A DNA stretch of 64,000 nt from Schmidtea polychroa (Eukaryota): assembly GCA_044892525.1 (NCBI GenBank), contig CM097885.1, positions 10,666,001-10,730,000 on the forward strand, given 5' to 3'. The notes beneath the pieces are model-generated. The model had not been told where the DNA came from, did not search any database, and saw only the letters and a list, made by a program, of their open reading frames with translations. Position 1 is the stretch's first letter; every line of letters starts with the position of its first letter. A program made the position numbers and the translations under genes. Positions 12,055 through 47,201 of this stretch are shown here, piece by piece.

Positions 12055-15000
12055 TAAACAAAATGAGATAAAAAATAAATTACAGCAAAATCTCAGTAAT
12101 AAATAGGGGGAATAATAAGATACTAATAGAAGAAATAAGAATAAGTAACAAAATAAATAAAAATCCTAGGATTTAGAAATAAGACAAGAATCTAAGACAC
12201 ACAACAGACAAAATAGAAATAGAATAGCAAAGTTAGAAAAATAAACGAGAATTACAGAAAACAAAATAGAAATAAAACCAATTATAGGTCTAAATAAAAC
12301 AAAAAAAATTATGCTACAATAAAATAACAATAAACCCGTAAGAAAAAATAAGGAAAAATAAGAAAAAATAGGAAAATAAATAAAACAATAATAAAAAATG
12401 CATTAAGTCATCAAAATCCAAAGATATCATAATAAAAACATACAAATAATAATAAATAATAGAATTACAAGCAAGTCGCGTCCTGATTGGACGGAAAATA
12501 ATATATAAAGAATGAGAAAATCTGTAGAGTATCACTCTTAATCACTACTCTACAGTTCCACAACTTACATATTCATTTTGAACAAAACCCTACAGGACAT
12601 CAGAATCAGTTCACTACTATATTCAACAGCTACAGACTGCAAATACTTAGTTAGACTATCATTCGGAGACTACAAAACTAAAGTTAGGCGAGGAATAGAT
12701 AATAATCGGACGACGAACCCAGGAGACAGACTAATCTCAGACTAACCGAGTTCACTTATTCGATCCAGTTTTTGGAATTTGAAGTATGAAGTTGAATTTT
12801 TATGTTTGATAATTTATTATGGATATTTTATAAATAATTAAAAAGTATAACGATTTTCATTCAATAAATTTTATTTTCGACAAATGGATAGCTTTTTCTT
12901 CATGGTTCCGGTGACTGTGCTGTCTGGTGAATTCAGGTATGATGTGGATGAGTGAGGGTATGCCACAATGGAGGGGATAGCCACGAGGGGCTAGTCAAAA
13001 TATATACCCCAAGAGGACTATAGAAATCCGATACTCCGAGAGTATGAAAAAAGTTCGTGGAATCATTCCTGTAAACACTGCGATAAATTATGAGATTACG
13101 TGGCTAGAGAACATCATACTTGGATCCCAGATAGTGTGGCGCTGGGTAAATTTTATCAATTGAATTATTCATGCCTTCATGGTTCATTTTTTCTATTTAA
13201 TTTGTTAATTTGATTTATGGGAATGAGTCGATTGGTCTTCCACGACGGTGCAGGAATGGTGGCAGAAGTGTATGCCGTTCCTGGGTGTGTCGTGGGGGTG
13301 AAGAGACTCCGTAAGATGGGATCTAGTGAAAAGTGTAGGATTATTCATCGAGTGCGATCGTGGAGCGTCTTTCCTGTCGTTTTGTTAGTAACTTCAAATT
13401 TCCAACAATCGTGAGGCTGGTTGAATTCTAAGTCAAAAATGAGATCCTGGTGAAGTCGACCTTTGCGACGAGCTTCGTTTCTGTAAACATCCACATAGAG
13501 GAGGAAAATCAATTTTTCGTATGAGCTTGTCTATTAACAGATATGGGAAAAGAACCAGTTCGGTCATGACCCGCGAGAAAAATCCAACACTGACGAGGGT
13601 TAGTCGACATTGCGTATCAAACGGTTGTTAGCTTCTAGAACTGTCAGCTATGCACTTTTAGGGCAAGTTGTTGAGCGTAGGCTATCGATAAGAGTCTCCT
13701 TCCTGTCAGCGAAATAAACATTTCACTCTACATTATCGGAACACTCATCATCAGTTTGTAGGAAATAGTGCCCGCGATATCACGAAACTGTCAATATTTT
13801 CCAGTCAGATTTGGGGTTTGGCACGATAGTCGGGTAAGAATAGTCCGATAAGATAGCCAGCAGGAAATTTTGTTTTCTTTCGTAAAGGCAGTTGATAAGA
13901 GGTCGACGATTGAAATCATAAATCCACAAACTAATGTAAATCCAATTCGAAGAGTGAATTTTTATCGGATAAGTTGATCATTTACTTAAGCACTCGTGAA
14001 AATCTATTGACCGACTGTTCCAGTTTGTTTTATCTGCTAAGTATCCATCATTTTGGTAGAAGTGAGAAGAAGTTGATTACGTCATCATTCGTAGAATTCG
14101 TGGCTTAGCTAATCACACACACTGACCACCTATACGCCCACGCCCGACTCGAAATTTCAGTAGTGGTTGTGATAACGGTGAGGGCAAATTCGCACACATT
14201 CACACACGGATAGACGTCGGCCAGATAACAGGAGGGGGCGAACATATTTTTCAATAATGTGCACACCTTGATTCTTATGTAGACTCAGATAGATTTAATG
14301 TATTGATAAACCCGAACAAAGATCTACTACCACTCTACGACGTGAGGGGCGAAACAGAATCTAATAAGTGTTGGGCTAGAACTGACTTCTAGACCCAAAT
14401 TTCTAATTGTGACTGAAATGTGTAAGTACACAGCATGCAAAAAGCAAAAAGTATAGTTAAATATTAAAAACTAAACCAAATAAACAATAGTAATTAAAGG
14501 AAAAAACAACAAAAACATAAAAACAGAAATTAAATAAAATTATACCAAAAGCAAGAGGTTATGCAAAATAGAACTCGAAAATAACCAAATAAACACAGAT
14601 AAACATAAAACAGACTCGAACAACTTAAAAGACGATAAAAACCGAAAAAATTCCAGAAAAACCCAGAACATTCCATTAAAATGGCGATGACCATCACAAA
14701 AGCCAGCTAGAACAATAAAAGTTAGAGAAAATAAATAAATTAGTATTAAAAATAATAAATCTTAAAAAGAAATTCATAAAACACCATAAAATAAAAATTA
14801 AATTAAAAGTAAAATAGAATATTCTGGAACCGTTCCAAATCCATCATGGACGTCAAATTAAGGAAAAATAATTAAAAAATAAAAATTTAAAAATAAAAAC
14901 AAAAATTATGGCACAAAAATTGCCATTAAAAATATCAAAATCGCAAAATAGAAAATTCTGGAATAAAAAGAATTCGAGTTTGTTTTAATGCATCAATACA

Positions 15001-16449
15001 TACACGTGTACAAAATAGGTATATATACTGACACGTTTCAGTCACAATCAATCACTTTTATGCCAATATTTTGCTGAAGAATTTTCTGGAAAATTATTAG
15101 TAAGCCTTTTGATTTGATGTAATTTTATGCTATGTAATCATGTTAATATCAACCTTTTGTTCATTAAAAATATTATTAAGATTTTAGGCTTTAGTAATTC
15201 CCGACGGATCAGCGGCGTCCGAGTACGTCTCTGATCGGTCCTGTATATAATTCTTAAATTCTATTTCTCATGCATACATGCATTATTATTATCTATAAAA
15301 CCCTTTTTTGTTCTGGTCAGCCGGAGGTCGAACTACTTCATGGTCCTGCCATGGAGTTAGGTCGAGGAAACCCTCCGCCTGACTCTTTGTATTTATGTAA
15401 GGTCGACCGTAAATGGTTGACTCAACACTCAACACTAAGGTTTGTGGAAGTGGTCACAGTGGGGCCATGGAAGCAATATTCTTCCCAACCTTCTATGTAA
15501 CACATATTTAAATTCAACATTTAAAATCAGTACAACACAAAACTACCCTAAGGTTGGTAAATTGAGTAGATCTCATACCTAAAATTCAACAAATCACACT
15601 TAGTACAGACGGTCGCATTTCTAAAAATTGACTCCGCCCATACATTGCCGGACCTAGATAAATTTTCTGAATAAAGTAAAGAATTTTCATAATGATTTAG
15701 TCTGTAATGAAGGTTCGAAAATGTGTCGGCGGGGTTCGGATTTTTCATTAAATGCAATTAACTGAAGACGAATCGCACACCTTTAGAACATTGAATCCCG
15801 TCATAATTTTATGAAGTGTCGAAGAATATTTATAATTTTGGCCTTTCAAAAGGGATGATTATGGATAAATTTGTCAATAAAGATGTGAGTCATAAGTAGC
15901 TGTGGATAAATGTTGTTGCAGAAATAGATAAAAATTTTTTCTGAATTATAGTTGATAAGAGACTTAAATTAAAGAATGCGAGAGTACGTTAGACCTAAAT
16001 ATGTCAATTTTGATCGTAAGAGTATGAATTATAAACTGTCATGGGTAAGATTTGCTTACAAAGACATAAATTACAGATCGTTGTATAAAAATTGTATTAA
16101 AATATAATAATTAGATATGAATTGTTAGCATAAACATCAACTGCAAAACCTAAATTTTAATTGTAAGGTCAAAAAATTTTTTAAATATAAAATATAAATT
16201 TCATCTATAAAATATAAATTTCGGTTACGAAAGTAAAAACTTCAATCTAAAAATTTAAATTATAAATTATATATATAAAGTATAAAGTATAAAATAACTT
16301 ATAATTGGTTATAATCCAGCTGGATAAGAAAATCATACAACATGAAAAACCATGGAAACCTCCCATTAAGTAGGTGATCTCATATTGAGAATTGAAAGCA
16401 AAATTTTAGTTAAATTAAGCATTATGAATATCTATAAAATAAATATAAT

Positions 16450-45047: not shown

Positions 45048-47201
45048 TGTTGGGCTAGAACTGACTTCTAGACCCAAATTTCTAATTGTGACTGAAATGT
45101 GTAAGTACACAGCATGCAAAAAGCAAAAAGTATAGTTAAATATTAAAAACTACACCAAATAAACAATAGTAATTAAAGGAAAAAACAACAAAAACATAAA
45201 AACAGAAATTAAATAAAATTATACCAAAAGCAAGAGGTTATGCAAAATAGAACTCGAAAATAACCAAATAAACACAGATAAACATAAAACAGACTCGAAC
45301 AACTTAAAAGACGATAAAAACCGAAAAAATTCCAGGAAAACCCAGAACATTCCATTAAAATGGCGATGACCATCACAAAAGCCAGCTAGAACAATAAAAG
45401 TTAGAGAAAATAAATAAATTAGTATTAAAAATAATAAATCTTAAAAAGAAATTCATAAAACACCATAAAATAAAAATTAAATTAAAAGTAAAATAGAATA
45501 TTCTGGAACCGTTCCAAATCCATCATGGACGTCAAATTAAGGAAAAATAATTAAAAAATAAAAATTTAAAAATAAAAACAAAAATTATGGCACAAAAATT
45601 GCCATTAAAAATATCAAAATCGCAAAATAGAAAATTCTGGAATAAAAAGAATTCGAGTTTGTTTTAATGCATCAATACATACACGTGTACAAAATAGGTA
45701 TATATACTGACACGTTTCAGTCACAATCAATCACTTTTATGCCAATATTTTGCTGAAGAATTTTCTGGAAAATTATTAGTAAGCCTTTTGATTTGATGTA
45801 ATTTTATGCTATGTAATCATGTTAATATCAACCTTTTGTTCATTAAAAATATTATTAAGATTTTAGGCTTTAGTAATTCCCGACGGATCAGCGGCGTCCG
45901 AGTACGTCTCTGATCGGTCCTGCATATAATTCTTAAATTCTATTTCTCATGCATACATGCATTATTATTATCTATAAAACCCTTTTTTGTTCGGGTCAGC
46001 CGGAGGTCGAACTACTTCATGGTCCTGCCATGGAGTTAGGTCGAGGAAACCCTCCGCCTGACTCTTTGTATTTATGTAAGGTCGACCGTAAATGGTTGAC
46101 TCAACACTCAACACTAAGGTTTGTGGAAGTGGTCACAGTGGGGCCATGGAAGCAATATTCTTCCCAACCTTCTATGTAACACATATTTAAATTCAACATT
46201 TAAAATCAGTACAACACAAAACTACCCTAAGGTTGGTAAATTGAGTAGATCTCATACCTAAAATTCAACAAATCACACTTAGTACAGACGGTCGCATTTC
46301 TAAAAATTGACTCCGCCCATACATTGCCGGACCTAGATAAATTTTCTGAATAAAGTAAAGAATTTTCATAATGATTTAGTCTGTAATGAAGGTTCGAAAA
46401 TGTGTCGGCGGGGTTCGGATTTTTCATTAAATGCAATTAACTGAAGACGAATCGCACACCTTTAGAACATTGAATCCCGTCATAATTTTATGAAGTGTCG
46501 AAGAATATTTATAGTTTTGGCCTTTCAAAAGGGATGATTATGGATAAATTTGTCAATAAAGATGTGAGTCATAAGTAGCTGTGGATAAATGTTGTTGCAG
46601 AAATAGATAAAAATTTTTTCTGAATTATAGTTGATTAGAGACTTAAATTAAAGAATGCGAGAGTACGTTAGACCTAAATATGTCAATTTTGATCGTAAGA
46701 GTATGAATTATAAACTGTCATGGGTAAGATTTGCTTACAAAGACATAAATTACAGATCGTTGTATAAAAATTGTATTAAAATATAATAATTAGATATGAA
46801 TTGTTAGCATAAACATCAACTGCAAAACCTAAATTTTAATTGTAAGGTCAAAAAATTTTTTAAATATAAAATATAAATTTCATCTATAAAATATAAATTT
46901 CGGTTACGAAAGTAAAAACTTCAATCTAAAAATTTAAATTATAAATTACATATATAAAGTATAAAGTATAAAATAACTTATAATTGGTTATAATCCAGCT
47001 GGATAAGAAAATCATACAACATGAAAAACCATGGAAACCTCCCATTAAGTAGGTGATCTCATATTGAGAATTGAAAGCAAAATTTTAGTTAAATTAAGCA
47101 TTATGAATATCTATAAAATAAATATAATCATGCTTATTATTACCACTACCATTGTTACTGTTAGTCGTACAGTCATTATTGTTATCATCGTTATGGTTAT
47201 T
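45048..47201 (+). repeat. 3' LTR of the giant element, truncated within the ATT microsatellite
   Basis: Matches 14369-16522; I counted about 8 substitutions and no indels. Confidence 0.95.

Follow-up and report, generated by a model that had tools for sequence, protein, structure and literature searches.

The question raised by this stretch of Schmidtea polychroa DNA (64,000 nucleotides of GenBank assembly GCA_044892525.1, contig CM097885.1, positions 10,666,001 to 10,730,000 of the forward strand; hereafter the window) is what kind of element occupies positions 14369-47201 of its plus strand, and whether that element is still alive. The first-pass annotation of the sequence had described a giant, virus-like Gypsy element with an envelope gene, a polyprotein of about 14 kb and an array of accessory genes, and had considered it possibly infectious and its organisation undescribed. 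Our analysis indicates that the locus is very probably a dead, 3'-truncated copy of a high-copy giant Ty3/gypsy-type long terminal repeat (LTR) retroelement of the Burro kind. The architecture is already known, and the locus is a rediscovery of a published picture. All coordinates given below are positions within the window.

The boundaries of the element were located by self-comparison of the window, in which 14369-16522 and 45048-47201 are 99.63% identical over 2,154 columns. Both copies start with TGTTGGG, and the left one continues past 16522 to the ...CCATACA that closes it at 19906, so that the LTR termini are of the form TGT...ACA. A genome search with the segment 19000-20000 listed 42 matches (40 scored of 2,972 candidates); with the window itself and two short partial matches excluded, those listed showed 88-95% identity. 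Most of them end at query positions 903-905 (19902-19904 of the window) and a minority extend into the leader, which is the pattern expected of 3' or solo LTRs versus 5' LTRs. The LTR end at 19906 and the genomic LTR copies ending at 19902-19904 together define a 5' LTR of 5,538 bp (14369-19906, plus strand) and an internal region of 25,141 bp (19907-45047, plus strand). The earlier figures of 5.5 kb for the LTRs and of approximately 36 kb for a unit with a complete 3' LTR were thus accurate, as the complete element would measure about 36.2 kb.

The 5' LTR of this copy is a rare mosaic variant. Four other genomic copies (A-D, described below) align to it only in its first ~720 bp, in a 300-bp block and in its last ~880 bp, and its middle part (17100-18414) is matched over its full length at just a few further genomic sites. 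The 3' LTR (45048-47201, plus strand) comprises the first 2,154 bp only: the break falls inside an ATT microsatellite and 3.4 kb are gone. A nested insertion splitting the 3' LTR was considered and rejected, since the missing 3.4 kb is absent from the rest of the window and from the next 40 kb downstream.

Four bases beyond the end of the 5' LTR lies TGGGGGCTCAGCCGGGATTTGAAC (19911-19934, plus strand), a primer binding site that is complementary at 24 of 24 positions to the 3' end of tRNA-Pro(TGG), CCA included. The reverse complement of this site was lengthened by two bases, a pattern that excludes the element's own copies, and gave 2,305 matches in the genome versus none in a reversed control. 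These matches sit in tandem arrays that repeat every 475 bp. In the locus examined (contig C1, near 130.9 Mb), ARAGORN recognised four tRNA-Pro(TGG) genes, and the end of each coincides exactly with the pattern. The proline primer site claimed previously is therefore matched by a tRNA of the same genome. Two hallmarks of Ty3/gypsy elements are present here, namely LTRs in direct orientation that begin with TG and end with CA, and a tRNA primer site adjoining the 5' LTR.

Between these repeats, the plus strand of the window carries ten stop-to-stop pieces (23423-37667, roughly 14.3 kb), followed by further open reading frames (ORFs) up to 44693. Pfam domains assigned to translations in the standard code give the ten pieces, which we call ORF1, the order zf-CCHC Gag, MATH, PF24664 glycoprotein, protease (PR), reverse transcriptase (RT), RNase H (RH), integrase (IN) and ankyrin repeats (Ank), all on the plus strand. 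The Gag part (23732-25966) contains three CCHC knuckles (PF00098, E 1.4e-11) and is followed by a MATH (TRAF-C) domain at 26976-27302 (PF21355, E 1.1e-22). The enzymes occupy 31409-34240 (RVP; RVT_1, E 2e-35; RT_RNaseH, E 1.3e-30; Integrase_H2C2, E 9.9e-22; rve), with an in-frame stop at 33125, and the Pfam positions place the integrase after the reverse transcriptase (PR-RT-RNaseH-IN). Ankyrin repeats (35216-35479; PF12796, E 8.7e-09) follow the integrase. A polyprotein of about 14 kb containing a fusogen-like glycoprotein had been proposed for this region; these domains bear it out, as does the single open frame into which the pieces merge in other copies.

The family to which this copy belongs is very large. 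The env segment has 2,602 candidate genomic copies, of which the 106 scored are 97-98% identical; by a hand count, 60 of these 106 are embedded in an uninterrupted frame of 4,700 aa or more, in most cases 4,791 aa. For the inhibitor-of-apoptosis (IAP) ORF of the accessory array there are 3,295 genomic candidates, and 96 of the 105 scored have no internal stop. The two segments lie about 10.5 kb apart on the same strand in at least 20 places present in both lists (10,408 in the window). Four other copies (A-D), located on two contigs and fetched in 10-kb stretches, are colinear with the window across the whole internal region at 93-95% identity. In three of the four, one long frame of about 4,790 aa spans 23417-37669 in window coordinates, and the same three contain frames of 160 aa (RING) and 93 aa, then 153, 487 (TRAF), 392 (IAP), 533, 269 and 341 aa.

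This colinearity bears directly on the suggestion that the 33-kb unit is a locus-specific chimera or misassembly, in which unrelated elements and host genes have been stacked by nesting. The surroundings would invite such an explanation: the window is crowded with other mobile elements, the 3' LTR ends in a microsatellite beside a Penelope-like element, and the LTR of this copy is a rare mosaic. A chimera of this kind is nevertheless very improbable, given that the four copies on two contigs keep the same ORF order along the entire internal region, that the env-IAP spacing recurs at its ~10.5 kb in the genome, and that, of 30 bins across 19950-39949, 24-30 are covered by contigs of four public runs. 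According to the first-pass annotation, other copies lacking the glycoprotein and the accessory genes would have spoken for a chimera; copies A-D carry the same layout as the window. The description as an env-carrying, metavirus-like element with host-type apoptosis and ubiquitin genes holds for the family, with the same genes in the same order in the other copies.

In the contigs of three public runs, an 860-bp stretch of ORF1 (26128-26987) is replaced by 12 other letters; this form probably represents another subfamily. The search also encountered a second gag-env-pol family, 17.7 kb in length with 1,058-bp LTRs at 99.7% identity and a frame of 3,334 aa, which has no accessory array (L035:7847 to L037:5583).

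The copy in the window itself is dead, with about ten interruptions of the long frame and a truncated 3' LTR. Defined against copy A, the lesions of ORF1 comprise in-frame stops at 26973, 29502 and 33125 and seven frameshifting differences near 25893, 26065, 27301, 27797, 30620, 36241 and 37221. Two accessory ORFs are frameshifted as well, the 533-aa ORF near 41950 and the 269-aa ORF near 43419; those that remain open are the RING, 153-aa, TRAF, IAP and 341-aa ORFs. A live, possibly infectious provirus might be expected from the 99.63% likeness of the LTR halves, from the many open long frames in the family and from the description of BURRO1 as "highly abundant and active" (PMC8532177, in the part of that text accessible to us). 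For this locus such a reading is next to impossible in view of the three stops and seven frameshifting differences in ORF1, the two broken accessory frames and the 3.4 kb missing from the 3' LTR. The idea of a possibly infectious element has therefore to be abandoned for the window copy (about ten disabling lesions and a truncated 3' LTR), and for that copy only.

The identification as a dead Burro-type copy rests on comparison with published elements, for which the accessible parts of the cited papers were used. Burro/GYPSM1 of Schmidtea mediterranea has an internal region of up to 25 kb, a total length of more than 30 kb and thousands of copies (PMC6431247, which builds on Jurka 2007 and Grohme et al. 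2018). Its ORF1 of 4,873 aa is reported to contain a Gag with three CCHC motifs, MATH_TRAF_C, SUMO-like and BCL2-like parts, with env placed in frame between gag and pol, which was termed "the first case" (PMC6431247). PR, a dUTPase-like part, RT, RH, IN, ankyrin and BIR domains and accessory ORFs complete that description (PMC6431247), and the elements were proposed to be integrated proviruses interfering with apoptosis and ubiquitination (Arkhipova and Yushenova 2019, PMC6431247). Elsewhere, BURRO1 RNA has been reported in the intestine under PIWI control (PMC8532177), and Burro elements over 30 kb have been named as an obstacle to genome assembly (PMC11410931).

The element described here shares with Burro the 25-kb internal region, the total length above 30 kb, an ORF1 of about 4,800-4,900 aa and thousands of copies, together with the three-CCHC Gag, MATH, an in-frame env before PR, PR-RT-RH-IN, ankyrin, BIR and accessory ORFs. 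It differs in the length of the long frame (4,790-4,791 aa stop-to-stop in other copies versus the published 4,873 aa) and in the rare mosaic character of the 5.5-kb LTR of the window copy. It appears Burro-like in every feature tested; the subfamily name is not proven. The suspicion that the architecture might already be in print proved justified, and the organisation cannot be regarded as undescribed, since even the accessible text of PMC6431247 contains the Burro/GYPSM1 architecture.

A second comparison is provided by the errantiviruses of flatworms, nematodes and bryozoans, which are reported to have only ENV of the herpes simplex virus (HSV)/gB type and the order GAG-ENV-POL (PMC13524379, eLife 2026). 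The six from S. mediterranea have spans of 14.5-18 kb and copy numbers from 1 to 215 (PMC13524379). ORF order, a gB-type class III glycoprotein and the host phylum are common to these and to the present element, and the spans would fit an ORF1 of Burro size. As points of difference, the planarian entries are given as "none" for tRNA and LTR, and the word "accessory" has 0 occurrences in the main text as accessible to us (PMC13524379).

Several results weigh against the assignment to Burro and the picture of a functional family built on it. No purine-rich tract was found directly before the 3' LTR (45048). Pfam at E values up to 5 recovered none of the SUMO-like, BCL2-like and dUTPase-like parts, which were reported from HHpred in the accessible text of PMC6431247. 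Three oligonucleotides listed for BURRO1 (PMC8532177, Table S1) failed to match the window even with 3 mismatches allowed, and a genome search with two of them, allowing 1-2 mismatches, was equally negative; of the primers in that table, one for smedwi-2 has a single exact match and one for smedwi-1 has no match. The six ENV fragments printed for S. mediterranea in the supplement of PMC13524379 all differ from the window sequence; the closest, no. 6, is about 70% alike as judged by eye and not computed, and short peptide words of the window env likewise gave no match in that supplement. Finally, how ORF1 threads the membrane, how it is cleaved, and whether products of the element fuse membranes or counter apoptosis, as discussed below, are all matters that we infer.

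The env-like glycoprotein with its membrane anchor (29064-30830, plus strand) is divided among three consecutive PF24664 pieces in the window, where a stop at 29502-29504 and the absence of about 80 bases near 30620 disrupt it. A 625-aa env segment from an open copy matches PF24664 (Monjiviricetes_fusion) with E 2.3e-71. Among 1.84 billion representative sequences it has 991 relatives at E<=0.001: the closest are long polyproteins with the segment inside, followed by stand-alone glycoproteins of ~650 aa with 19-27% identity. An AlphaFold2 model of the monomer, built from an alignment of 51 rows (50 of them hand-picked from 150 listed matches), reached a predicted local distance difference test (pLDDT) value of 89.2, and all 51 aligned relatives match PF24664.

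When this model was compared with the PDB by Foldseek, 115 chains matched at E<=0.001 and herpesvirus gB ranked highest (E 3.7e-14, probability 1.00). In BFVD, 197 models matched at E<=0.001 and a chuvirus-type G ranked highest (E 1.2e-39), with template modelling (TM) scores of 0.57-0.66. Judged from the predicted fold, the matches to gB and chuvirus G argue that the env segment is a class III fusogen of the chuvirus-G/gB kind. The glycoproteins of chuviruses (Jingchuvirales) are its best structural matches (E 1.2e-39 to 1.5e-35, TM 0.57-0.66); there the protein is the product of an RNA-virus gene, whereas here it is a segment of a retroelement polyprotein. As far as the accessible texts allow a comparison, the modelled fold would agree better with the "HSV/gB-type" designation in PMC13524379 than with the likening to gypsy Env in PMC6431247.

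Two further parts of ORF1 deserve attention. The first, at 28900-29110 (plus strand), contains a BH2-like motif (YILEQRGWRNF) and, between this motif and env, a hydrophobic segment. The label BCL2-like for the segment before env comes from the accessible text of PMC6431247. The GGW of the motif is conserved in four related polyproteins, the match of the region to Mcl-1 is weak (E 1.4), an AlphaFold2 model from a 6-row alignment is unusable (pLDDT 43.5), and a search of the Atlas gave no usable match to a BCL2 fold.

The second is a membrane-protein module after the integrase, at the C-terminus of ORF1 (36170-37667, plus strand; two breaks in this copy). It consists of a signal-like segment, ~385 aa with 14 Cys and 6 N-x-S/T sequons, a T-rich stalk, a membrane span and a 90-aa tail, and has no match in Pfam, the PDB or the Atlas. 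The second gag-env-pol family mentioned above has the same membrane layout at the end of its frame, with no sequence likeness to this module (E 0.21).

In the long frame of copy A, a hydrophobic segment lies directly before the env ectodomain and after the BH2-like motif, the env anchor is at aa 2470, the signal-like segment of the C-terminal module follows the ankyrin repeats at aa 4292, and the last membrane span is at aa 4680. A hydrophobic map of this frame confines the cysteines and sequons to the two parts predicted to be lumenal. From these features we infer a self-consistent topology with four spans, in which gag and the enzymes would be cytosolic and both Cys-rich parts lumenal.

The accessory genes number seven, one upstream and six downstream of ORF1, all on the plus strand, with an additional ORF inside the LTR; four of the seven have no known family. 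The estimate of at least seven was therefore right at the level of the family, according to the ORF map of the other copies. The upstream ORF (20563-21045, 160 aa) encodes a RING domain of the IAP type (PF13920, E 1.1e-10) and is open in all four fetched copies. Downstream, a 153-aa ORF without a family (37816-38271) is followed by a TRAF-like ORF (38361-39770) with zinc fingers (PF02176, E 4.7e-08) and then a C-terminal MATH domain (PF21355, E 6.3e-24), arranged, according to Pfam, as in TRAF proteins. The IAP ORF (39913-41091, 392 aa) is intact and combines a BIR domain (PF00653, E 1e-13), with zinc ligands spaced C-x2-C-x16-H-x6-C as read from the translation, and a C-terminal RING (PF13920, E 1.7e-11). 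The array ends with a coiled-coil ORF (41209-42746; 533 aa in other copies, frameshifted near 41950 here), an ORF at 42864-43632 (269 aa in other copies, frameshifted near 43419 here) and an ORF of 341 aa stop-to-stop with an N-terminal hydrophobic segment and a C-terminal membrane span (43707-44693).

Host-type genes in such an array could be functional parts of the element or decaying passengers, that is, captured host mRNAs whose A-rich tracts and AAUAAA-like words are relics of poly(A) tails. We compared the window copy with the four other copies by the Nei-Gojobori method, and obtained ratios of non-synonymous to synonymous substitutions (dN/dS) at dS values of 0.05-0.33; three of the four copies are close to each other, hence the comparisons are not independent. 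The ratios were 0.03-0.04 for PR-RT-RH-IN, 0.04-0.09 for env, 0.15-0.20 for gag and 0.16-0.26 for the C-terminal module of ORF1. Those of the accessory ORFs were 0.14-0.27 (RING), 0.07-0.12 (153 aa), 0.16-0.18 (TRAF), 0.17-0.18 (IAP), 0.08-0.27 (533 aa), 0.11-0.30 (269 aa) and 0.19-0.23 (341 aa). Such low values (0.07-0.30) suggest that the accessory ORFs have been kept as coding sequence between copies, and on this comparison they are maintained by purifying selection along the lineages separating the copies compared.

The passenger explanation draws on the host-type nature of the TRAF, BIR and RING domains, on the UGUAAAUA or AAUAAA-like words and A-rich sequence behind each ORF, and on the spacer between the 533-aa and 269-aa ORFs, whose A-rich tract (42763-42810 in the window) contains a run of at least 43 A in one copy (L021 near 9390). 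We regard it as unlikely, because all seven ORFs have the low dN/dS ratios given above, all are present in all four fetched copies, and the IAP frame is without a stop in the great majority of scored copies (96 of 105). Moreover, an origin by mRNA capture is compatible with present usefulness.

The spacers themselves contain regularly placed signals. UGUAAAUA occurs eight times in the 25.1-kb internal region, and seven of the eight occurrences fall within the spacers that follow stop codons (887 nt in total), as a rule 17-18 nt past the stop. A second word, UGUANAUA, is found 11 times in the internal region, nine of them in spacers. All seven accessory starts have an AG resembling a splice acceptor within 4 nt upstream (26.7% of all 648 ATGs of the internal region have an AG at this distance), and this AG mostly follows a U-rich run, e.g. 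tttattatag followed by ATG, or atttttgtag followed by atATG; no AG of this kind precedes the ATG of gag. Copies A-D retain the signals without change, which adds little as the spacers are about 95% conserved overall.

Spliced-leader trans-splicing occurs in planarians (PMC12582326, PMC10899757). Judged from the sequence signals, the accessory array may be parsed in an operon-like manner, or its messages may be cis-spliced from the leader; another possibility is that the signals were left behind by polyadenylated mRNAs captured in the past. The contigs of the four public runs, whose RNA nature is a guess, contain no GT..AG joint, and the rows listed for these runs include no joint or loose end at the proposed acceptors.

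The leader (19907-23731, plus strand, 3.8 kb) contains the RING ORF, a 93-aa frame and repeated modules. Two paralogous units of ~190 nt with a conserved hairpin form a duplicated module at 21829-22345 (plus strand); the units (21829-22020 and 22147-22345) are 74% identical, and an 8-bp stem is retained through three compensatory pairs. The 93-aa frame (22230-22511, plus strand) is of doubtful meaning because it overlaps this RNA-like module. The claim of a structured leader was partly upheld: the fold of the primer-site region (z-score -2.55) and the compensated stem speak for it, whereas an Rfam scan of the LTR and leader recognised no family and gave only two sub-threshold matches at chance level. 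A polypurine run, GGGAAAAAGGGGGGA, is also present in the leader (20270-20285).

The ORF inside the LTR (18998-19498, plus strand) would encode a basic coiled-coil protein of about 160 aa with no Pfam family above the cut-off. It is open in copies A, B and D, and in copies B and D the frame has no Met near its start. Over 150 codons compared with copy B, the differences number 26, 18 and 78 at the first, second and third positions, and 114 of the 150 residues are the same; by this codon pattern the LTR-internal ORF is conserved.

These observations can be combined into a tentative model of how intact members of the family might work. Genomic RNA would initiate in the 5' LTR, and its reverse transcription would be primed by tRNA-Pro. 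ORF1 would be produced as a single membrane-threaded polyprotein, in which the hydrophobic segment after the BCL2-like part would act as the signal for the glycoprotein ectodomain, the env anchor would bring the chain back to the cytosol for PR-RT-RH-IN-Ank, and the second signal-like segment would send the second ectodomain into the lumen. The cuts between the pieces would be made by signal peptidase and by the protease that the element encodes. The fusogen could permit the passage of particles between cells, and the RING, TRAF, IAP and BCL2-like products might protect the producing cell from apoptosis and restrain its ubiquitin or NF-kB-type signalling. The copy in the window is by itself capable of none of these steps.

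In its most far-reaching form, the model would make the family a two-glycoprotein, operon-bearing retrovirus-like agent with a four-span ORF1 and seven punctuated cistrons, which on the sequence features listed is possible and, in our estimate, rather less probable than its negation. Both the gB-type fusogen and the second ectodomain module, which follows the integrase in the classical env position, would be lumenal. A splice acceptor abutting the AUG would mark the start of each accessory cistron, and a UGUAAAUA(A) 3'-end signal, lying some 17 nt past the stop, would mark its end; the acceptors would be used in cis-splicing from the leader or, instead, in the spliced-leader trans-splicing of the planarian. 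The tRNA-Pro primer site, the membrane module after the integrase, the LTR ORF and the spacer signals were not found in the accessible Burro and errantivirus literature; Grohme 2018, Repbase and the supplements may hold them.

Accessory genes as such have precedents. Complex retroviruses carry accessory ORFs, and baculoviruses and herpesviruses carry viral IAP and BCL2 homologues. The element resembles these viruses, as well as foamy-like endogenous retroviruses, in having extra genes beside gag-pol-env and anti-apoptotic domain types; it differs in that most of its seven or eight accessory ORFs are packed tightly behind pol, with spacers of 74-148 nt, and in that some regulatory domains are fused into the polyprotein itself. 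Foamy-like endogenous retroviruses with accessory ORFs have been reported from fish (PMC6431247, accessible part).

Other mobile elements surround the locus. A Maverick/Polinton-type fragment (449-4172) encodes an A32-like packaging ATPase on the plus strand, and an integrase with a phospholipase-A2-like domain and a double-jelly-roll capsid protein on the minus strand. A small Ty3/gypsy element (7349-12054) with identical 153-bp LTRs and open frames of 449 aa and 1,062 aa (PR-RT-RH-IN) looks very young. Directly after the truncated 3' LTR lies a Penelope-like element (RT and GIY-YIG; 47646-49538, minus strand). Further downstream, a 209-aa frame (52143-52769, plus strand) contains a TRAF-type zinc finger with E 9.8e-05, below the Pfam cut-off, and may be a host TRAF exon or a Burro remnant. 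A BEL/Pao element (55686-63431, minus strand) has 936-bp LTRs (99.9%) and a ubiquitin domain in its gag-side frame (PF00240, E 2.9e-22).

To conclude, the locus repeats the published Burro picture without changing it. Burro elements are among the largest LTR retroelements known, and the bundling of a viral fusogen with regulators of apoptosis and ubiquitin places them on the border between transposons and viruses. The regular signals around the accessory genes suggest how the 25-kb RNA of a retroelement might be divided into many messages. If spliced-leader trans-splicing is involved in this division, it would be a new way for a retroelement to express its accessory genes.

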